Source of the DNA: an uncultured cyanobacterium
Lineage (GTDB): Bacteria; Cyanobacteriota; Cyanobacteriia; Cyanobacteriales; CAWCAG01
DNA: 64,000 nt
Direction: 5' to 3'
Assembly: GCA_963803805.1 (NCBI GenBank)
Contig: CAWDOD010000010.1
Span: forward strand, 480,001-544,000
The position numbers were made by a program, and so were the translations under genes. This document shows positions 1,492 through 39,133 of the stretch, in pieces (positions within the stretch are counted from its first letter, which is position 1; every line of letters starts with the position of its first letter). The notes under the pieces were generated by a model that saw only the letters and a program-made list of their open reading frames with translations, ran no database searches and was not told the origin of the DNA.

Positions 1492-3543
1492 ATGCTTTCC
1501 AATCTTGACCCCAAGGGTGAAATTTGGCAACTATGTCAACAAAGTAAAGTTGGCAAACTTTTACCCAATGCTTTATACGTCCATACTTCTGCTCTAAATT
1601 CCCTCACTCCCCAACTCCAAAATTATGAAAGCCGAGTTAGGCAAACTAACAAACGCTTAGCTGAAGCTACCTTAATTAAATTCAACTTTAATAAACCGAA
1701 AATTTCCTATCTCTTTTACCCAGATTTTGATGAAGATCCTCATCCATCTCTGCAAAGTAGTATTCAAGTAGATGTGCTGAGTTTAGAAACTAGTTATCGA
1801 GATTATAGTAGCTCAGAAAATCCTCCCATACTGCATCGCAAAGAAGCCTTTGTAACTGCCGACTATCCCCTTTACCAAAAATTCGCTCAACTTACTCTCA
1901 CTGAAGAAGCTTTAGGTTTATTAGATAAATCTCGCTTCATCGGTACTCAAAAGGAATGGCAACAACGCCTTGCTAACTATGGCGTAGAATTACAAGGGCA
2001 TTACCTTGCTTGTCCCTTACACAAAGCCCAAAAAACTCGCACCATCAGAATTGAACGCCACAAAGCAGCAATGGTGCGTAAGTCCCTTTCCCGTCCTGTC
2101 CGTTTAGCCCTAGAAGCAGATTTATTTCCCCCCGGTACAACTTTTTTTGACTATGGTTGCGGTTGGGGAGGAGATATAGAACGTATGGCAAAAAAAGGTT
2201 ATCATAGTTCCGGTTGGGACCCCTATTATTGCCCAGAAACAGCCTTAACAGCCGCCGATGTGGTTAACTTAGGCTATATTATTAACGTCATAGAAGACTT
2301 GGCAGAACGGCGAGAAGCCCTTGTTGAGGCTTGGAATTTAACTCAACAGGTCTTAATTGTAGCAGCACAAGTCTTAATTAGTAGCAGTAGTAGAGGACAA
2401 ATTGCCTACGGAGATGGTGTAATCACCAACCGCAATACCTTTCAAAAGTATTATGAACAAGAAGAGTTAAAAAGTTACATCGACCAAGTTCTAGACGTTG
2501 ATGCTATCCCTGTTGGGTTAGGAATCTACTTCGTTTTCCGCGACGGAACCCAAGCCCAAACTTTCCGTGCCTCCCGCTTCCGTTCTAGGGCTACCACTCC
2601 AAGGGTTTGCAAGCCTGTTAGACGTTTTGAAGATTACCAAGAATTGCTTGCTCCGTTGATGATCTTTATCACTGAACGAGGACGCTTGCCAGCCAAAGGA
2701 GAGTTAGCCGAAGAAGTTGCCCTTAAAGAAGAATTTGGTACTTTGCACCGTGCTTTTAAACTTATTTTACAAGCAACAGACCCCCAAGAGTGGGAAGCGA
2801 TCGCTGAAAAACGCCGTCAAGATTTGCGACTCTACTTAGCCCTAGCAAAATTAAATCAAACTCCTAAACTAAGGGAGTTTGCACCTAGAGTAAAAGAAGA
2901 TTTTAAAAGCTTATTCGGTAGCTATCGTCAAGCAACTTTTGAGGCGGAAGATATGTTATTTAGTCTTGGTGATCCCGAAGTTATTGCCGAGTGCTGTTTG
3001 CATAGTAAAATTGGACAGAAGGGGCGTAACTCTCTTATTGTACATATTAGTGCTTTAGAAAACCTTGATCCGTTGCTACGACTTTATGAAGGTTGTGCCA
3101 GCCGTACCATTGGCAGAATGGAAGAAGTAACCTTGATTAAGTTTCACATCCGCAAACCCAAAATTTCTTATCTCTTCTACCCCGACTTTGACACAGAACC
3201 CCATCCCCTTCTCCATACTAGTATGCAAATAGACTTGCAAGACTTACACGTTAGTTATTGGGAACATGACCCTGAGAATCCTCCTGTTTTACACCGAAAA
3301 GAAACCTTAGTTACAACAGATTATCCCTTCTATGAAAAATTTGCCCGTCTCAGCCGCCAAGAGCAAGACTGGGGCCTATTAGATGAGCCTAATAACATTA
3401 GATACCTCCAAGGCTGGTTAAAATACCTCGAAAACCATTGTGCCACTTTTAAAGGTCATTTTCTGGTATGGCGTAAGGATGCTGACCCTTATAAAGTTAA
3501 GTTACTCAAAGCTGCAGTTCAAGCCCGTAGGAGGGGAAGATAG
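1492..3543 (+). CDS. DNA phosphorothioation-associated putative methyltransferase
   Basis: SAM motif FDYGCGWGGD, GWDPYY, ADVVNLGYIINVIED; duplicated KISYLFYPDFD...NPP.LHRKE domain at both ends. Confidence 0.85.
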   Translation: MLSNLDPKGEIWQLCQQSKVGKLLPNALYVHTSALNSLTPQLQNYESRVRQTNKRLAEATLIKFNFNKPKISYLFYPDFDEDPHPSLQSSIQVDVLSLETSYRDYSSSENPPILHRKEAFVTADYPLYQKFAQLTLTEEALGLLDKSRFIGTQKEWQQRLANYGVELQGHYLACPLHKAQKTRTIRIERHKAAMVRKSLSRPVRLALEADLFPPGTTFFDYGCGWGGDIERMAKKGYHSSGWDPYYCPETALTAADVVNLGYIINVIEDLAERREALVEAWNLTQQVLIVAAQVLISSSSRGQIAYGDGVITNRNTFQKYYEQEELKSYIDQVLDVDAIPVGLGIYFVFRDGTQAQTFRASRFRSRATTPRVCKPVRRFEDYQELLAPLMIFITERGRLPAKGELAEEVALKEEFGTLHRAFKLILQATDPQEWEAIAEKRRQDLRLYLALAKLNQTPKLREFAPRVKEDFKSLFGSYRQATFEAEDMLFSLGDPEVIAECCLHSKIGQKGRNSLIVHISALENLDPLLRLYEGCASRTIGRMEEVTLIKFHIRKPKISYLFYPDFDTEPHPLLHTSMQIDLQDLHVSYWEHDPENPPVLHRKETLVTTDYPFYEKFARLSRQEQDWGLLDEPNNIRYLQGWLKYLENHCATFKGHFLVWRKDADPYKVKLLKAAVQARRRGR

Positions 3544-10948: not shown

Positions 10949-11156
10949 GCAATACTAATTTTTCACTAAACTAAATATAAAATTAAACTAGCTGTGCTTC
11001 AGGGGTTAAGTTGAGGTACACAAAAGGCGTTTTATGCTAGATGTCTTAATCGTTACCATAAGCCATAGAAATATTAATCAAATGTTAAATTTATTGAAAT
11101 TACTTTACAATTAAACTTAACAAAAATTAATTTTAATCTGAAACCCCTACTCTTAC

Positions 11157-11888
11157 ATGGCTGATCCTAACCATATTGCTCTACTGGATAAAGGCATCAT
11201 TACCTGGAACAACTGGAGACTAAAAAACTTAAAGTTAGTACCTGACTTAGTTGGAGTTGTTTTAGCAGAGAGGGATTTAACTAAAGCAAACTTCTATTTA
11301 GCCGAACTTCTTGAAGCCAACCTTACCAGAGCAAATTTCACTGAAGCTAACTTAATTAAAGTAGACCTAACTAGAGGTAACTTGACTGAAGCAATTTGTA
11401 TTCAAGCAGACTTAGAAGACGCGAATCTCAGTCGAGTTCGTATGAAAAAAATTTACTTAATGCGAGCTAATCTTCGCAAAGCTAATCTCACCAGGGCTAA
11501 CTTAATTGAAGCCAATTTAACCGGGGCTGATCTTAGCCAAGCTAATCTTGTGGGAGCCAATCTTACTCAAACCATAGGTTTGCGGAGTAATTTTAGTCAA
11601 GCCAATTTAACTGGGGCTGATTCTAGCCGGGCAGACTTGACAGGAGCTAATTTAGATAGAGCAAACCTTTTAGGGGCAGATTTAGTTGAGAGTAATCTTA
11701 CCGGAGCAAACTTAGGGAGAGCTAATTTTAGAAAAGCAGATTTGAGTGGTGCAAATTTGCAGGAAGCAAACTTAAGTCAAACAGATTTAACGGGTGTAGA
11801 TCTAAGTGGAGCTAATTTAAATGGAGCTAATTTAGTAGGAGCTAACTTAGATGGGGTAGTTTTGCGTACTTTTCAAAACACTCAGTAA
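11157..11888 (+). CDS. Pentapeptide repeat protein
   Basis: WNNWR N-terminus followed by tandem A(N/D)Lxx repeats. Confidence 0.95.
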   Translation: MADPNHIALLDKGIITWNNWRLKNLKLVPDLVGVVLAERDLTKANFYLAELLEANLTRANFTEANLIKVDLTRGNLTEAICIQADLEDANLSRVRMKKIYLMRANLRKANLTRANLIEANLTGADLSQANLVGANLTQTIGLRSNFSQANLTGADSSRADLTGANLDRANLLGADLVESNLTGANLGRANFRKADLSGANLQEANLSQTDLTGVDLSGANLNGANLVGANLDGVVLRTFQNTQ

Positions 11889-12099
11889 AGCAGATATTTT
11901 TGTTGAGTAGTTGGAGTAGTTGGAGAATTTAATTACTTTTAGAAAGAGAAAATAATAGTGCGATCGCGGTCACTATAAACAGCAATTTTTGTCACTTCAA
12001 TATAATTACTGAGTCACGGAAATCCTAGCCCATCAAGCTGATACTTATATACATAAGGGATAACAGAGTTTTTAATCAACATACAACTTTTGAAAAGCC

Positions 12100-12279
12100 A
12101 TGAAAATTGATATCCAAGAACTGTTTTGCAAAATCATGTCTGTCCGCAATATTTCTCTTGTTGAGCAAAAATTAATCACCTCTCTCTTACAAGAAGACGG
12201 TATCGAAGAAACTGAACGTGCTTTAATTAAAAGATTATTTTATGGCGTAGAACGTGGTTTAGTAAAAGTTGCCCACTAA
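12100..12279 (+). CDS. Small cyanobacterial hypothetical protein, 59 aa (absent from the ORF track)
   Basis: Hand-translated MKIDIQELFCKIMSVRNISLVEQKLITSLLQEDGIEETERALIKRLFYGVERGLVKVAH; resembles cyanobacterial EE..AI.RL.Y.V.RG..KV small proteins. Confidence 0.7.
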   Translation: MKIDIQELFCKIMSVRNISLVEQKLITSLLQEDGIEETERALIKRLFYGVERGLVKVAH

Positions 12280-12381
12280 ATGGCAAACGGTTTATAGATA
12301 ACAAATATTTAAACAGACAGTTAAATTAAAAAGTATCAAGAAACGAAACAAACGCAAAGATAAGACATTTAAACGATATAT

Positions 12382-12520
12382 TATAGCTATTCCCAAGCTG
12401 CTGAGGTAGATTTCCACTAGCCATTAGCCAAAGCGAAAAAATCAGAATGGTACTAATAATTTTTATATTGGGTCATTTCAAATAAGCTACTACGCCTTTC
12501 TGCTGCTCTGTACCTCCTGA
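12382..12520. repeat. Degenerate TATAGC...TGAGGTACA-family short dispersed repeat
   Basis: 12382-12430 aligns by eye with the reverse complement of 38555-38603; TGTACCTC at 12509-12516. Confidence 0.6.
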
Positions 12521-12850
12521 CTCCAACAAGTAATTCTTTATACCTGATAGCTTAATAACTTATTGACAGATAGCTTTTTAACTGCAACTTATTACTAATT
12601 TTACTTTTTGCAGATTCTATTTATCCCAATAGGAACTAATATTGAGGCTAAGGGCAGAATAAGGGAAGTAGTACTAACTTCAGATAACACAACCTCACTT
12701 GTGAGGCTATCTGAGAGGAATCAAATTATTGGTTGCTTAGGGTTTGTATCTATTTGTGGTTAGTCATTCCTGTGCTAGTAGCTCAGCAAAAAGCAGGGAT
12801 ATTCCCAGTACTAGCTACTTAAGTTAAGTTTGTGAGTGTAAACAGCAGCA

Positions 12851-13600
12851 ATGACAAAGCGCCAGATTTTAATTGGTGACGTTCATGGTCACTACGATGC
12901 TTTGAAGGTACTATTAGAAGCGGTTGCTCCTGGACAACAAGATCAAGTATATTTCCTTGGAGATCTGATTGATAGAGGACCAAAAAGTTCTCAAGTAATT
13001 GAATTAGTAATGCAGAATAACTATTCTTGCATCTTAGGCAACCACGAAGATATGTTGCTTGCTGTCTTAGACAAAGAATCTACTTCTGAAGCAGCGCTAC
13101 AAGCTTGGTTATATAGTGGTGGTTATGCGACTATAGCTAGTTATGGGGAGGAAGGCATTCCTAAAGAGCATATTGAATGGCTACGTACCTTACCCAGTTA
13201 TCTCGATTTAGGGGAGATTTGGCTGGTTCATGCGGGGGTTAATCCTAATTTGCCCTTAGAACAACAAAGTTCTGAACAGTTTTGTTGGATTAGGGAAGAA
13301 TTTCATCGCACTACTCAACCCTATTTTCCTGATAAGTTGATTATTACAGGACATACCATTACCTTTACTTTACCGGGAGTATCACCAGGAAAAATTGCTT
13401 CAGGTCCAGGCTGGTTAGATATTGATACCGGAGCTTATCACCGTAAAAGTGGCTGGCTGACTGCTTTAGATTTTACCCATAAATTAGTTTACCAAGTAAG
13501 GGTAGAACAGCAAGAAGTACGACTTGTTCCTTTAGAAGAATCTGTCGCTCAAGTCAAGTCTGCTCAAGTTTCTACTCACAAATTTGCCTTTCCTTTTTGA
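12851..13600 (+). CDS. Metallophosphoesterase, PPP-family Ser/Thr phosphatase
   Basis: GDVHG, GDLIDRG, GNHE, HAG, GHT, DTGA. Confidence 0.93.
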   Translation: MTKRQILIGDVHGHYDALKVLLEAVAPGQQDQVYFLGDLIDRGPKSSQVIELVMQNNYSCILGNHEDMLLAVLDKESTSEAALQAWLYSGGYATIASYGEEGIPKEHIEWLRTLPSYLDLGEIWLVHAGVNPNLPLEQQSSEQFCWIREEFHRTTQPYFPDKLIITGHTITFTLPGVSPGKIASGPGWLDIDTGAYHRKSGWLTALDFTHKLVYQVRVEQQEVRLVPLEESVAQVKSAQVSTHKFAFPF

Positions 13601-13718
13601 GGTCTTGCTCCCATTAAAAGATGATTGAACCCCTCAACCTTTTAGTTCCCCTGGCTCTTTTAGGTTTGATTATTATAGCAGCGGTTTTTTTTGGTCTGAC
13701 TAAAAGTTAGAGAGATTT

Positions 13719-15122
13719 TCAACACCACTTTTCCTTAATACGCTTAACTTGTGCTTGAAAATGACTTCCCTTAACGGAATTAACCATTGCCACAAAATTA
13801 CTAAAACCTTGAATTGCAGCTAGGATATCACTAGAATTTCCCCAGGTTTTTCCGGTTAAGCCATCTTTTTCAATTTGGTATAAAGTAGCACGGAATCGCT
13901 TGAGGGTTTTGCGATCTAAGTTGGGAAATTCGTTCACTACAACCCCAGTTACTTCTATTTGGCTAGATTTGCGGCGTAAAATTCTGGTTTTTTCTTGGTT
14001 GATGGTAAAACCTTCATGGCTAACAATTGATTCGGTACGGCGGAGGAGATTGCAAATATAGCGAAGGTGAGTGCCAGAAGCAGAAAAGGTGAGATCGTCA
14101 GCATAGCGAGTATAAGTAAAGCCTAATTCTACAGCAGCATTAGTTAAGCGTTTGTCCAAACGGCGACAGAGAAGGTTAGAGATGGCGGGGGAAGCGGGGG
14201 AGCCTTGGGGTAAATGACGTTCTCCTAAGGCGACATAATAGGTTTTACTATCTAGTTCTACGGTTTCTAATTCTGCTTCGGTACATAACAAAGCAAAAAT
14301 AGTGGCGGCGGCTTCGGAATAGCCGAAGGAGCGGTATAAGCCTTTAACTCTTTTATAGGAGATAGAGGGGAAAAAATCTTTGAGGTCAAAATTAATAGCC
14401 ACATCAGCACCGACATGGGGTTGAGCATTAGTTACGATAGAGCGATCACGTCGAAAACCATGGGCAGCATTATTAATGGCTATTTTTTCTAAAATATTGC
14501 TCAAAAGCCAGTGTTGAGCTTGTTTTAACTTGGGCAGGGGAGCAGATATTAAGCGCTCTCCCCCGGTTTTTTTCGGGATTTTAAAGCGTATGTAATGGGA
14601 TATGGTGGCAGTTTTGCGGTTAAAAGTGAGGAAGCGTAACTGCCCGATGCTAATTTTCATGGCTTGGGCAATTTCCTGGGCTGTTCCTAAGATTGGTATA
14701 CCATGCGATCGCAACCTTTCTTCGTCGCAGTGAGTATGATTTAGCCCTCCGGAAACCTCTTCTCCTAAATAGACAATATCTTGCTCTTGTTTTTGTTGCC
14801 AAGCTTCTGAGCGTTCCTGTCGTTGTCTTTCCCGCCTTTCTTTGGTTTGGGCCTGTTTGCGTCGGGATTCAGCTAATCGCTGCTTCAAAGCCTCTTTACG
14901 GAGGGCTTTTTCATTAGTAAGTCGGGAACTTTCTCGCCGTAACTGTTCTAACTCCCGGCGAATCTCTCCTGTCCGGCGAATCTCATCGGCAGGATCTTGG
15001 GGGATCTCTCCTTCCTCTGGCCAAAAACCCAAGCGAATCATTTCTTCTAAAATAAATTCTTGTTTCCCTCTTTGGCGGATAATATCGTAGAGTTCCTGAC
15101 GGTTACGGGGTTGCTCGGACAT
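13719..15122 (-). CDS. Retron-type reverse transcriptase with N-terminal extension (myxobacterial Mx162-like / type XIII-like)
   Basis: IPKKTGGERLISAP, AHGF, NAQPH (NAxxH), DLKDFFPSI, LPQGSPASP, YTRYADDLTFS, VTG in region Y; about 130-aa charged helical N-terminal extension. Confidence 0.9.
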   Translation of the reverse strand: MSEQPRNRQELYDIIRQRGKQEFILEEMIRLGFWPEEGEIPQDPADEIRRTGEIRRELEQLRRESSRLTNEKALRKEALKQRLAESRRKQAQTKERRERQRQERSEAWQQKQEQDIVYLGEEVSGGLNHTHCDEERLRSHGIPILGTAQEIAQAMKISIGQLRFLTFNRKTATISHYIRFKIPKKTGGERLISAPLPKLKQAQHWLLSNILEKIAINNAAHGFRRDRSIVTNAQPHVGADVAINFDLKDFFPSISYKRVKGLYRSFGYSEAAATIFALLCTEAELETVELDSKTYYVALGERHLPQGSPASPAISNLLCRRLDKRLTNAAVELGFTYTRYADDLTFSASGTHLRYICNLLRRTESIVSHEGFTINQEKTRILRRKSSQIEVTGVVVNEFPNLDRKTLKRFRATLYQIEKDGLTGKTWGNSSDILAAIQGFSNFVAMVNSVKGSHFQAQVKRIKEKWC

Positions 15123-15150
15123 GGTTTGGGCAGGATAGAGGAACGAAGAT

Positions 15151-15156
15151 ATTATA
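15151..15156 (-). promoter_or_regulatory. Candidate -10 box (TATAAT) of the RT gene
   Basis: Perfect TATAAT on the minus strand, 28 nt upstream of the RT ATG, within a 50-bp intergenic gap. Confidence 0.45.
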
Positions 15157-15172
15157 GTACAAGCGAACTTAA

Positions 15173-15868
15173 TTATCTATATTTGTTCAACCAGTTATTA
15201 AGAAAATTCTGCAACCATTCTTCTCTTTCCTTGCTATAACAGATATGTTTCTCAAGCTGTTCCGCAACAGACTGCGCCCCAGGGAGAGTCAGTTGATCTG
15301 CCCCGTTTGTTGTCCAAAACTTAATCATCTCCTCAGTCATTTCCGGGTGAAACTGCAACCCGTAAGCATTCTTACCATAACGAAAAGCCTGATTAGGAAA
15401 GAGTTCTCCTGATGCTAATTTAACAGTTTCTGGTGGCAGTTCAAATCCTTCTTGATGCCATTGATAAACCTGTTTGAGTTGAGCAAAATCTGCTTTGCCT
15501 TCTGGGGTAGAGGTGATAGGAAAATAACCAATTTCCCTAATTCCTTGAGGGTGTCGGACAACTTTTGCTCCCAAAACTCTAGCTAATAATTGTGCGCCCA
15601 AGCAGATACCCAAAAAGGGTTTTGCTGAGGTGATCGCGGTGGGAATCCAGTCTAATTCTGTGCGAATATGGGGTAAGGTCTGGTCATCATTAGCACTCAT
15701 AGGACCACCAAAAACGACCACAGCTTGATGATTATCTAAACTAACAGGAAGTTCCTGCCCTACACTAGGAATGCGAATATCAAGTCCATATCCCGCTTGT
15801 TGTAACAGCTTTCCTACTAATCCAGGATTAGATGTTGTTTGGTGAACAACAACCAGAATTTGCTTCAT
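15173..15868 (-). CDS. Type 1 glutamine amidotransferase
   Basis: GGPMSA, GICLGAQ nucleophile elbow, QFHPE. Confidence 0.92.
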   Translation of the reverse strand: MKQILVVVHQTTSNPGLVGKLLQQAGYGLDIRIPSVGQELPVSLDNHQAVVVFGGPMSANDDQTLPHIRTELDWIPTAITSAKPFLGICLGAQLLARVLGAKVVRHPQGIREIGYFPITSTPEGKADFAQLKQVYQWHQEGFELPPETVKLASGELFPNQAFRYGKNAYGLQFHPEMTEEMIKFWTTNGADQLTLPGAQSVAEQLEKHICYSKEREEWLQNFLNNWLNKYR

Positions 15869-16173
15869 TTGCTAAGGATAATGAATGATTGACCGCTATT
15901 TTCTCGTCTCGGTGGCCACAGGTCTGTATTGGTTGAGTCAGTTAATCATCGGTTCGACAATTTCTATTGGTCAAATTATCTTTCTGTTGTGGCAGGTTAG
16001 ATGTTTACCTTCCATGCCCATTTAAAAAAAGCTCCCAACCCATCTCCGATAAAATATTTTTTTTGATTTGAAATTGATTTTTATCCGATGAGATAATTAT
16101 AACATAAATTCAGCTTTGGTGCTAGGAAAGTAGTAGAAGTGGAAACAGAAAAGATTCGTATTATAGTAATTAT

Positions 16174-19062
16174 TTACTTCGCTTCCATCCAGTTACTTCC
16201 AGAATTAATTTCTACCAATAAAGGTACACTCAACTCTACGGCATTTTCCATGGTTGTTTTGACTTTATTCTGTAAATCTGACCATTCTTCTGGAGGAACT
16301 TCTAAGATTAGTTCGTCGTGGACTTGAAGCAATAACTTGGCTTGATAATTTGTGAGGATTTCTTGCAATCTTATCATGGCAATTTTAATAATATCGGCAC
16401 TGGAACCTTGAATAGGAGAATTGGCTGCCGCCCTTAATAATTGTGCGTCATATTGACCAATGTTTTTAAGTTCATTGAGGTCAATATCTTGAGGCTCACT
16501 ACCTCTTAGTTTGCGGAGGCGATCGCTGGTGAAATTAAAGTAGCGACGACGGTTAAAGATGGTGGTGACAAAACCATTAGCGATGGCTTCTTTTTTCTTA
16601 CTTTCTAAGTAGTCAAAAATGAGGGCATAACGTTCTCGATAGCGTCCAATAAAATCTTTACCAACGTCAGAACTTAATCCTGATTCCCTAGCAAAACGTT
16701 GCGCTCCCATACCATAAATTACTCCAAAATTAATTATTTTTCCTAACCTTCTTTCTTCTGTGGTTATTATTTCTTTTTCAAAGATAATTTGAGCAGTAAC
16801 GGTATGAACATCTTTTTGTTCTTGATAAGCTGTCACTAAAGTAGGTTCTTGACTAAGATGGGCAAGAATTCTTAATTCAATTTGTGAGTAATCTGCTGCG
16901 ACAAGTAACCAACCTTCTTTGGGAATAAAAGCTTGGCGAATTTGCCGAGAAAAAGCTGTACGAATAGGAATATTTTGTAAGTTAGGGTTAGAAGAAGAAA
17001 GTCTGCCTGTGGTAGTAACGGTTTGGTTAAAGTTGGTATGAACTCTACCTGTATCTGGGCGAATTAAAGCCGGTAAAGCATCTACATAGGTGGATTTTAA
17101 TTTAGCTAAACTACGCTGTTCTAAAATGAGGTCAATTAAAGGGTGATCGCCTTGTAATTTTTCTAAGACGGCATGGTTGGTAGAATAGCCTGTTTTTGTT
17201 TTACGAGTCTTTCCCGTATCTAATTCTAACTTTTCAAAAAGTACTTCACTTAACTGTTTAGGAGAAGACAAGTTAAACTCTTTCCCTGCGGCTTGATAAG
17301 CTTGTTGTTCAATTTTTTGTAAGTCTTGCTCTAATCGTTGAGAAAAGTTTTCTAAATACTCTTTATCTATTCTTACCCCCAGATATTCCATTTCTGCTAA
17401 AACTGGTTCGAGGGGTTGTTCTATGGTGGTTAGTAGTTCTGCTAAAACTGGTTTAGTAGCTAGCTTTTTCTCTAATTCCAACTTTAAACAAAAGGTACTA
17501 TAAGCATCTAATCCACAATATTCGGCAACAGTAGGAATATCCAAATCAGCAATAGTTTTTCCCTTGGGAATACCTAAATCTTCATAACTTTTGGCTTCAA
17601 TTCCTGATAAATATTTGAGAGCTAAATCTCCTAATTTATGGGAAGCATTGGGGTCTAAAATATAACTTGCTAACATAGTATCAAAGACAACCCCTTTCAA
17701 CTCAATTCCTTGGGCTTTTAATACTAAACGGTCAAATTTGGCATTTTGTAAAACTTTAGGATACTTATCACTTTCTAGTACGGGTTGTAAAGCTGCCAAA
17801 ACTTCTTTCTTGGGTAAATTAGCACCAGAATTATGACCTACAGGAACATAAGCAACTTCAGTTAATTCTTTGCCCCAACAACAACCAATTCCTACTAATT
17901 CAGCATCCCTTGGTTCTAAGGCTGTGGTTTCTGTATCCCAAGCAACGGAGATTTTTTGGTAGGTTTTAAGTTGCTTAACTAAAGCCGTTAATTTCTCTGG
18001 GGTATCAATAATTTGTGTTTGAGTTTGTACTTGATTTACTTGTTGATTTTTTTCTGTATCTTCAGAACTAAAAAACCATAAGTCTTCATCCTCAAAAACT
18101 TCTACAGTTTCTTCTTGCTCTTCTAATAACGAATCACCGCCGAACTTATCCTGTAACTTACTAATATCTTTAACAAACTTCTTTAACTCCAACTCTTCTA
18201 AGAGAGCTTGTAACTTAAGAGTATCAAAGCCTGTCAAGTGAAACTCTTCTTCTTGTAACTCTATCCCAGGAATTTCATCAATTAACTGAGCCATATATTG
18301 AGAATGGTAAGCAATATCTTTTCCCTCCGCCAACCTTTTCTTCTGCACCCCTTTAAGCTTTTCTAAATTCTCATAAACTCCTGCCAAACTTTCATATTCT
18401 CGCAACAACTTAACAGCAGTTTTATCCCCTATCCCCCTAATACCAGGAATATTATCGGACTTATCTCCAGATAAAGCTTTATAATCAACTACCTGAGAAG
18501 GTGTAATACCCATTTTCTCTTTTACTTCCTCTTCCCCAAATTCAATGATGCCAGAAGCACTTTTCATGGCACGGGGATCTAAATAAAGGACAGAAATATC
18601 TTTTTGATTATCTACTAGTTGAAATAAATCGCGATCGCCACTAACAATTTTGACTTGATAACCTAAGTTACTCCCTTGTTTAGCCAAAGCTGCAATGACA
18701 TCATCTGCTTCGTAACCAGGGCTAAAAACTACGGGCAAGTTTAAGGCGGAGATTAGTTTTAAAAGATTTTCTAAGTCAATACTAAAATCCTCTGGAGTTT
18801 CTTGACGATCTGCTTTATAAGTAGCATCTTTTTCATGGCGAAAAGTCTTTCCTCCTAAATCAAAAGCTACTGCTATTAACTGAGGCTGTTGAGTATCTAT
18901 AACATGAATAAGAGAATTGAGAAAACCAAAACAAACGCTAGTAGGAATTCCTGTTGAAGTATATAATCCTCCGCTACGGCTTTTAGCAAAGGCATAATAA
19001 GCACGGAAAGCTAAGGAATGTCCATCAATTAATAGTAGTTTTTTAGGAGTTCGATTAGGCAT
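16174..19062 (-). CDS. polA: DNA polymerase I
   Basis: LLIDGHSLAFRAY 5'-3' exonuclease, WDTETT 3'-5' exonuclease, DYSQIELRILAH, QVHDE. Confidence 0.98.
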   Translation of the reverse strand: MPNRTPKKLLLIDGHSLAFRAYYAFAKSRSGGLYTSTGIPTSVCFGFLNSLIHVIDTQQPQLIAVAFDLGGKTFRHEKDATYKADRQETPEDFSIDLENLLKLISALNLPVVFSPGYEADDVIAALAKQGSNLGYQVKIVSGDRDLFQLVDNQKDISVLYLDPRAMKSASGIIEFGEEEVKEKMGITPSQVVDYKALSGDKSDNIPGIRGIGDKTAVKLLREYESLAGVYENLEKLKGVQKKRLAEGKDIAYHSQYMAQLIDEIPGIELQEEEFHLTGFDTLKLQALLEELELKKFVKDISKLQDKFGGDSLLEEQEETVEVFEDEDLWFFSSEDTEKNQQVNQVQTQTQIIDTPEKLTALVKQLKTYQKISVAWDTETTALEPRDAELVGIGCCWGKELTEVAYVPVGHNSGANLPKKEVLAALQPVLESDKYPKVLQNAKFDRLVLKAQGIELKGVVFDTMLASYILDPNASHKLGDLALKYLSGIEAKSYEDLGIPKGKTIADLDIPTVAEYCGLDAYSTFCLKLELEKKLATKPVLAELLTTIEQPLEPVLAEMEYLGVRIDKEYLENFSQRLEQDLQKIEQQAYQAAGKEFNLSSPKQLSEVLFEKLELDTGKTRKTKTGYSTNHAVLEKLQGDHPLIDLILEQRSLAKLKSTYVDALPALIRPDTGRVHTNFNQTVTTTGRLSSSNPNLQNIPIRTAFSRQIRQAFIPKEGWLLVAADYSQIELRILAHLSQEPTLVTAYQEQKDVHTVTAQIIFEKEIITTEERRLGKIINFGVIYGMGAQRFARESGLSSDVGKDFIGRYRERYALIFDYLESKKKEAIANGFVTTIFNRRRYFNFTSDRLRKLRGSEPQDIDLNELKNIGQYDAQLLRAAANSPIQGSSADIIKIAMIRLQEILTNYQAKLLLQVHDELILEVPPEEWSDLQNKVKTTMENAVELSVPLLVEINSGSNWMEAK

Positions 19063-32504: not shown

Positions 32505-32837
32505 TTAAGCGTTAGGAGCAGGGCAATTATTATTAGGAGCAGGGCGATTTGGGGTAGATTGATTGTTATTAGGAGCAGGGCGATTGTTATTAGGAGCAGG
32601 ACGATTTGGGGTAGATTGATTATTATTAGGAGCAGGGCGATTATTATTAGGAGCAGGTGGCGCTCCGATATTGACATCAACCTCTAAGGCTACTTCACTC
32701 TTTTTTGAGATAGAATCTAGAGTATCTATAGTTGGCAATGTTACTGCAAAGGCTGGGGCCGTAGCTATAATACCAACAACGCTAGCAGTAATAGGCAGAG
32801 AAGTGAAGAGATGACGGAAAATCGCAGGTTTTTTCAT
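32505..32837 (-). CDS. Secreted Pro/Asn-rich tandem-repeat protein (110 aa)
   Basis: Signal peptide MKKPAIF...APAFA; repeats PAPNNNR / PAPNNNQSTPNR; ATG at 32837 preferred over 32921. Confidence 0.75.
   Translation of the reverse strand: MKKPAIFRHLFTSLPITASVVGIIATAPAFAVTLPTIDTLDSISKKSEVALEVDVNIGAPPAPNNNRPAPNNNQSTPNRPAPNNNRPAPNNNQSTPNRPAPNNNCPAPNA
32514..32657. repeat. Coding tandem repeat with alternating 21/36/21/36/21-nt units
   Basis: Each unit starts AGGAGCAGG; all unit lengths are multiples of 3. Confidence 0.95.
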
Positions 32838-32981
32838 TGTTTTTATCCTTTTTGATTGCTTACCGTTACATATTAAGCAACCTAAAAGAGTAATGACATG
32901 GTGCAATATTCCTAAATTCAATAGTTCTTGAGTACCATTTACTAGTTAGTACTTTGGGACTATTGGAGGGAAATTATTATT

Positions 32982-38882: not shown

Positions 38883-39133
38883 GTTGCAACGTACAATAAT
38901 CCCTATGAGGGATTGAAACAGCTTTAGGAAGAGAAACACCTCGCTCCCAGTCAGGTTGCAACGTACAATAATCCCTATGAGGGATTGAAACGAGAGCATG
39001 AATCAAGAGAACCGTTAGAGTATTGCGTTGCAACGTACAATAATCCCTATGAGGGATTGAAACTCTAAATTCTAAACTTACAACTCCAGGATAAATGTTG
39101 CAACGTACAATAATCCCTATGAGGGATTGAAAC
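38883..39133 (+). CRISPR. CRISPR array, 4 identical 37-bp repeats and 3 spacers (35, 35, 33 bp), type I-D-like, no cas genes in window
   Basis: GTTGCAACGTACAATAATCCCTATGAGGGATTGAAAC at 38883, 38955, 39027 and 39097; internal hairpin AATCCCT/AGGGATT; 3' ATTGAAAC. Confidence 0.97.

Follow-up and report, generated by a model that had tools for sequence, protein, structure and literature searches.

We analyzed a 64,000-nt stretch of DNA from an uncultured member of the Cyanobacteriales (contig CAWDOD010000010.1, positions 480,001 to 544,000; hereafter the window), in which a minus-strand gene encodes a retron-type reverse transcriptase (RT) with neither a retron RNA nor an effector gene beside it. 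The evidence presented below makes it probable that this RT belongs to a complete type XIII (Mx162-like) retron whose four parts, the RT, a noncoding RNA (ncRNA), a SWIM protein and a WGR protein, were separated by genome rearrangement and work in trans. The genome containing the window (G000) spans 5.3 Mb in 11 contigs and is 97% complete, with the RT on contig C10. Feature coordinates are collected in Table 1.

An intact type XIII reverse transcriptase

The RT open reading frame (ORF) comprises 467 codons with zero internal stops, and its start, MSEQPRNRQELYD, agrees with the start conserved across 15 orthologs from related genomes. Among the PADLOC models, RT_XIII (PDLC02956) matched residues 2–466 at an E value of 1.4e-190 (632 bits, profile positions 8–427 of 469), far exceeding all other retron RT models; second-ranked was RT_other (2.6e-90). 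Because the RT_XIII profile spans these residues, a charged N-terminal extension is normal for this family. A search of the genome found one RT_XIII copy. The YADD and VTG motifs are invariant in the 15 orthologs. At the place of the NAxxH motif the protein reads N-N-A-A-H-G-F (residues 217–223) and the orthologs mostly HDAAHGF, with A219 and H221 as the only invariant positions.

Type XIII corresponds, in the accessible text of Mestre 2020 (PMC7736814), to RT clade 10 with Retron-Mxa1 (Mx162), Mxa2 (Mx65), Sau1 (Sa163) and Nex2 (Ne144). There, its RTs are linked to a SWIM zinc-finger protein (cluster 114, CxCx12CxH) and in most cases also to a WGR plus HEAT/ARM protein (cluster 216), possess their own ncRNA structure type and show a 16S correlation as under vertical inheritance. 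Cyanobacterial RTs were grouped with myxococcal ones and called putative in the accessible part of Simon 2019.

The stop codon of the upstream gene (15175–15173) and the RT ATG (15122–15120) enclose a short gap containing a −10-like TATAAT, which a promoter scanner joined to TAGATA (15179–15174) across a 17-nt spacer (10/12 matches). Homology to G001, a sister species of the same genus, starts just 39 bp before the RT ATG and takes in TGTACTATAAT; the RT thus has its own compact promoter. The genes next to the RT encode a class I glutamine amidotransferase (GATase, PF00117) and, in convergent orientation, a metallophosphatase (PF00149), and the DNA polymerase I gene polA lies further upstream. 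In the flanks of 16 RT orthologs, the phosphatase neighbor was common only to this genome and the sister species. A conserved partnership between the GATase and the RT was considered and rejected, as tblastn of the GATase against the same flanks matched this genome only.

A preliminary description of this DNA, made from its sequence alone, had proposed an intact Mx162-type (type XIII) RT of 467 aa with a long charged N-terminal extension and a HIP1 site in its gene, bordered by a GATase and a convergent phosphatase and preceded by a 50-bp gap with TATAAT. All of this was borne out. The retron motifs that it listed held for YADD and VTG and failed for NAxxH in its strict form. Its view that the upstream gap is too small for an msr-msd RNA agrees with the lack of any match to the family ncRNA profile (see below) in the window. 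The RT had also been called solitary and without an effector, which is correct locally and incorrect for the genome as a whole.

Template RNA and partner genes elsewhere in the genome

Rfam searches detected no retron RNA in the whole window at the gathering threshold or in positions 11000–18000 at E values up to 10, and relatives were therefore compared for a conserved ncRNA. Where the genes are clustered in the order WGR-SWIM-ncRNA-RT, a conserved element of ~235 nt lies directly after SWIM and before the RT. A profile built from five copies matched our genome once, on the minus strand of contig C2 (544554–544834, E 2.4e-62), where 338 bp separate an aldo/keto reductase gene from an ORF of 202 aa. 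Copy numbers come from nhmmer and BLAST rather than a covariance model, so weak second copies could escape. Rfam returned no family match for the C2 locus, only chance-level ones. An ncRNA hidden within or overlapping the GATase gene or in the RT 3′ flank was also considered and discarded, since the family profile matches the C2 copy only.

The element has the anatomy of an msr-msd RNA, with pairing 5′ and 3′ ends, a conserved msr hairpin and a long msd hairpin. Its terminal duplex comprises 16–29 pairs in 17/17 copies, formed by sequences that differ between copies. The copy in this genome folds at −102.5 kcal/mol (z −8.3), a stability reached by 0/200 shuffles. RNAalifold predicted 60 pairs for the alignment of 17 sequences, 30 of them with compensatory two-sided changes. 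Paired cells amounted to 93.4%, compared with 82.1% when partners were shuffled and 38–42% when they were slid by 1–3 columns. On four of five pairing measures 0/500 shuffles matched the observed value, and on the fifth, ‘further standard pair types’, 1/500 did; the shuffle control overstates the support because the sequences are related, which leaves the slide control and the msd pair types unaffected. A promoter-like TTGCTA-18-TAAAAT stops ~6 nt short of the 5′ arm, and downstream of the 3′ arm there is a T-run. The inner end of the 5′ arm carries an invariant G (G25 in the first row of the 17-sequence alignment), which may be the priming G. In relative G004, the T-run is followed directly by the RT start, with the ncRNA ending ~8–20 nt before the RT in a classical single transcript. 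With its ncRNA on C2 and its RT on C10, our genome departs from the contiguity by which retrons are recognized.

Synteny with the sister species breaks just upstream of both the RT promoter and the ncRNA promoter, in the latter case ~21 nt before the 5′ arm; at both breaks the downstream genes remain syntenic. Some relatives carry additional ncRNA copies: two in tandem beside the SWIM gene in G005, G017 and G058, and a second copy on a different contig in G052. The tandem copies share conserved msr and flanking regions and differ in their msd hairpins, which are sometimes longer (282–306 nt). A single RT may thus serve several ncRNA templates.

Both protein partners of type XIII retrons were found in one copy each. 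SWIM_XIII (536 aa, E 6e-236) is encoded on contig C6, flanked by genes for a transaldolase-family and a ferritin-like protein, and its CxCx12CxH motif occurs as CSC-x12-CEH near the C terminus (CSCNWYQQNKLYKGPCEH in the translation). WGR_XIII (1051 aa, 1212 bits, Pfam WGR and HEAT_2) is encoded on C3 between a MotA/ExbB-family gene and a gene for a pyridoxal phosphate-dependent enzyme. Neither gene is linked to the RT, and both settings are of the housekeeping kind, not defense islands. The contigs with retron parts measure 0.3–1.4 Mb, and each gene lies >80 kb from a contig end.

Co-occurrence and gene arrangement among relatives

We surveyed 61 genomes of the same order, counting an RT as full length at E values of at most 1.7e-189 and a profile start at position 7 or earlier. 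All four parts were present in 15 genomes, the RT and ncRNA only in one and none in the remaining 45. The 16 genomes with the ncRNA (BLAST) are the same 16 with a full-length RT, and SWIM_XIII and WGR_XIII occurred together in 15 of these RT carriers and in no other genome of the sample.

Gene arrangement varied strongly among the carriers. WGR, SWIM and RT are found together in that order in six genomes. The RT lies within ~3 kb of the ncRNA in 7/16 (G004, G015, G050, G027, G022, G037 and G012) and away from it in 9/16. The ncRNA adjoins SWIM in 12/15 and stands apart from all protein genes only in our genome, the sister G001 and G060. In G001, one contig carries the ncRNA and RT at a distance of 530 kb, and a second contig carries SWIM and WGR, separated by 134 kb. 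The two-contig genome G006 has its RT 3.4 Mb from a WGR-SWIM-ncRNA cluster, and the single-contig genome G312 has WGR at 2.20 Mb, SWIM with the ncRNA motif at 2.68 Mb and the RT at 3.35 Mb. Separations in such near-closed genomes indicate repeated dispersal rather than an effect of assembly. That the four parts are truly adjacent and were merely split across contigs could be suspected from the 11 contigs of our assembly, but each part sits deep within its contig with unrelated housekeeping genes on both sides, and the sister, G312 and G006 display the same kind of separation within single contigs or nearly closed sequences; we regard the chance of such an artefact as negligible.

In a sample of 301 genomes from across the phylum, a strong SWIM_XIII match accompanied the full-length RT in 18/18 genomes. 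One genome had SWIM and WGR with the RT not found (93% complete, 290 contigs). Scanning this sample for the ncRNA motif TCTAGTCC-N5-10-TTACGAAGG with one mismatch recovered the ncRNA in the seven same-order carriers and yielded nothing in other classes, the remaining one-mismatch matches being at the level of a reversed-pattern control. G228 and G301, single contigs of 1.7–1.8 Mb, carry SWIM_XIII next to a full-length RT_XIII, with 10–23 bp between them; WGR_XIII was not found in either, and the motif scan did not detect the ncRNA.

Matches to only part of the RT_XIII profile also occur. In G008 (which has this form only and was counted among the 45), G116, G152, G110 and G123 the matches start at profile positions 66–92 and thus lack the N-terminal extension; the frames measure 584–618 aa in the first three, 435 aa in G110 and 534 aa in G123. 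Neither SWIM_XIII nor WGR_XIII was found in these five genomes. Such RTs may represent a different retron subtype, possibly fused. Conversely, the RTs of G005 and G060 possess an extra conserved C-terminal domain of ~65–100 aa (ECFKQGSKL...GFYR...) that is absent from the other 13.

Selection and joint descent

Selection was assessed between our genome and the same-genus sister G001 at a synonymous divergence (dS) of ~0.55. The ratio of nonsynonymous to synonymous substitution rates (dN/dS) was 0.083 for the RT, with 0.135 in the N-terminal extension and 0.062 in the remainder, 0.065 for SWIM and 0.180 for WGR, indicating purifying selection. The ncRNA copies of the two genomes are 95% identical, and paired changes preserve the terminal and msd stems. 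Distance matrices of RT, SWIM and WGR from 15 genomes correlated at r 0.83–0.90, a level reached by 0/5000 permutations. This correlation reflects joint descent whatever the linkage and by itself is no proof of interaction.

These data bear on the possibility that the RT is an orphan relic, left over from a decayed retron whose former parts survive elsewhere without cooperating. Such a history would account for the missing ncRNA and effector beside the RT and for the end of sister synteny so close to its ATG. It is at odds with the intact frame and invariant catalytic residues, with the constraint on the RT and the other parts, and with the all-or-none presence of the four parts across the 61 genomes. 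The preliminary description had named relaxed dN/dS as the mark of a relic; given the low RT value, we consider this explanation very unlikely.

A LexA-box-like operator before the protein genes

Lining up the RT upstream regions revealed a palindrome, AGTAC-N4-GTACT, that ends at the −10 element in several orthologs. With AGTACN4GTACT and at most one mismatch as the criterion, boxes precede all three protein genes in our genome, at −47 for the RT, −62 for SWIM (AGTACATAAATACT) and −209 for WGR (AGTACATTAGTGCT). Across the RT orthologs, a box is present at −47 to −65 in 6/16 (500 shuffles: mean 0.07, maximum 1), the other five having perfect or one-mismatch versions in the same place. WGR is preceded by a box in 6/15 genomes and SWIM in 2/15, namely our genome and the sister, where SWIM has left WGR.

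The entire 5.3-Mb genome contains 91 such sites, four of them perfect, corresponding to 1.7e-5 per position or ~0.007 expected per 400 nt; three of the 91 precede the retron protein genes. Further boxes stand before lexA (AGTACTAGTGTTCT), recA (AATACTTTTGTACT) and two SSB genes, and the box is thus very likely the LexA operator of this organism. The cyanobacterial LexA box is given as RGTACNNNDGTWCB or AGTACWNWTGTACT by Mazon et al., as cited in the accessible text of Li et al. 2010 (PMC3091678), and by Li et al. themselves; the strict published pattern with 0 mismatches had no match in the window. As the RT, SWIM and WGR boxes resemble those before lexA, recA and ssb, we propose LexA control: judged by their upstream sequences, the three genes look like members of the LexA regulon, and the scattered retron is possibly LexA-controlled. 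Co-regulation appears to have taken the place of linkage.

The intergenic boxes number 42, with 34 downstream ORFs, of which 20 were scanned. The scanned ORFs included SSB, C-5 and N6 DNA methyltransferases, an Mrr-type nuclease domain, a HerA-like ATPase and DUF4007, and such defense-like genes may share the LexA-type regulon. A 666-aa ORF located 178 nt from one box site may be UvrB-like, as judged by eye.

Weighing the readings

Besides in-trans function, the evidence has to be measured against a domesticated RT that performs a job independent of the ncRNA, SWIM and WGR, such as repair-type cDNA synthesis, the retained parts then serving another purpose or none. The RT's own promoter and LexA-like box, its housekeeping context next to polA and the one genome that keeps RT and ncRNA without SWIM or WGR would fit such a role. 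Against it stand the ncRNA that accompanies the RT in 16/16 carriers, the status of this RT as the sole RT_XIII in the genome able to serve that ncRNA, and the same operator type before SWIM and WGR; a domesticated RT of this kind is therefore improbable, if less so than a relic. The preliminary description had left the choice between a retron with its RNA and effector encoded in trans and a domesticated RT with a non-canonical template. The former is upheld by the single ncRNA on C2, SWIM_XIII on C6 and WGR_XIII on C3, together with purifying selection and co-occurrence. The template is an ordinary type XIII one and not, as in the latter, a non-canonical one.

Several observations count against a complete retron acting in trans or against its joint regulation. 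G012, assembled in 500 contigs, has the RT and ncRNA with SWIM and WGR not detected, and two small genomes and G135 in the phylum sample are without WGR_XIII; the partners are therefore not strictly obligatory. A strict N-A-x-x-H string was not found in the RT, and the correlated distance matrices are equally expected from shared vertical descent alone. The boxes before RT, SWIM and WGR each carry one mismatch to AGTACN4GTACT, and a looser published LexA pattern occurs in the window at chance level (16 sites, 15.5 expected). In the sister, the left half-site before the RT has been lost, and the dispersed genomes G052 and G060 lack a box even when one mismatch is allowed. A box was found in 0/4 ncRNA copies examined, and the four parts are therefore not uniformly regulated.

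For the dispersed type XIII retron, a course of events can be outlined by analogy with studied retrons. The ncRNA would fold with its 5′ and 3′ ends paired, and the RT, translated from a separate mRNA with a short leader, would bind the msr hairpins, prime on the 2′-OH of the invariant 5′-arm G and copy the long msd hairpin into multicopy single-stranded DNA (msDNA). The RT–msDNA particle would then act together with the SWIM (SWIM/DEDE) and WGR-HEAT/ARM proteins. The protein parts would be bound by LexA and inducible by DNA damage, and the ncRNA promoter would be unregulated. A more far-reaching picture, which we offer tentatively as one possibility, is that the Mx162-type retron in these cyanobacteria may be a vertically inherited chromosomal regulon, not a mobile phage-defense island: a constitutive msr-msd RNA would await the RT and the SWIM/DEDE nuclease-like and WGR-ARM proteins, which would be jointly released from LexA repression upon DNA damage, so that a shared operator would replace the operon linkage of every described retron.

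Comparison with known systems

The system agrees with type XIII retrons in an RT that matches RT_XIII end to end, with the N-terminal extension as part of the match, and in its SWIM_XIII (CxCx12CxH) and WGR_XIII (WGR plus HEAT/ARM) partners. As far as the accessible descriptions extend, it also agrees in an ncRNA with pairing ends, msr hairpins and a long msd hairpin and in an inheritance that looks vertical. It differs in that no part is linked to another, all lie in housekeeping settings and the protein genes share a LexA-like operator. The accessible text of Mestre 2020 (PMC7736814) defines a retron by an RT whose ncRNA gene is contiguous with it, identifies partners through linkage, and describes orphan retrons as stand-alone msr-msd-RT cassettes, for example in the Ec107 branch, posing effectors in trans as a question. 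Our RT resembles these orphans in having no effector beside it. Their hosts, however, mostly lack partner homologs in that account and their ncRNA stays with the RT, whereas here the cognate partners are found elsewhere in the genome and the ncRNA is unlinked too. With the cyanobacterial LexA regulon, the genome shares a 14-bp pseudo-palindrome at promoter distance before RT, SWIM, WGR, lexA, recA and ssb; a difference is that the accessible text of Li et al. 2010 (PMC3091678) has no retron gene among the targets and 0 occurrences of ‘reverse transcriptase’.

Unlinked retron parts go unmentioned in the accessible text of Paul et al. 2022 and of the 2026 SPIRE survey. No title or abstract on unlinked retron parts or LexA-controlled retrons was found, although the supplement of Mestre 2020, which was outside the search, may list cyanobacterial clade 10 RTs without neighbors. 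Our literature search found no paper assigning a function to the Mx162 family.

The shared LexA-type box offers a first regulatory clue to what the Mx162 family does and, if the LexA regulon reading is true, would link the DNA-damage response to a retron type that has long gone unexplained. Retrons are defined, sought and classified by an ncRNA, RT and effector lying side by side; here all four parts are unlinked, yet they are retained jointly across species and under selection. Surveys that rely on adjacency will class such RTs as orphans or as incomplete systems and undercount them. The question of trans partners for ‘orphan’ retrons thereby gains a concrete, genetically testable positive case.

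Coordinates and other features of the window

Table 1 Features of the RT locus, the ncRNA and LexA-box-like sites. Positions are those of the window unless a contig is named.
Feature	Position	Strand	Details
Type XIII (Mx162-like) retron RT gene	13719..15122	−	467 aa; PADLOC RT_XIII and Pfam
Charged N-terminal extension of RT	residues 1 to ~145		typical of the family
RVT_1 domain of RT	residues 182–395, nt 14579–13938	−	Pfam
YADD of RT	residues 340–343, nt 14105–14094	−	
VTG of RT	residues 391–393, nt 13952–13944	−	
HIP1 site GCGATCGC	14712–14705		inside RT gene
Gap between GATase stop and RT start	15123..15172	−	50 bp; promoter-like site and short leader
−10-like hexamer TATAAT	15151..15156	−	kept in same-genus G001
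LexA-box-like 14-mer AGTTCGCTTGTACT before RT	15169–15156	−	one mismatch; abuts −10 with one-base overlap
LexA-box-like site AGTACTTTGGGACT	32948–32961		27 nt upstream of 138-aa ORF 32505–32921(−), no Pfam match
msr-msd-like ncRNA	C2 ~544,578–544,823	−	profile match, fold, covariation
Box sites before methyltransferase, Mrr-type, HerA-like and DUF4007 genes	C10:82536, C10:550603, C3:11959, C3:58539, C2:1047455		

Two further features of the window were noted. Rfam identified a CRISPR array at 38883–39133 with four CRISPR-DR5 repeats at a period of 70–72 bp. At 1492–3543, a 683-aa ORF contains a segment of ~120 aa that is repeated in its N- and C-terminal parts (KFNFNKPKISYLFYPDFDEDPHP... and KFHIRKPKISYLFYPDFDTEPHP...), with a central region between them.

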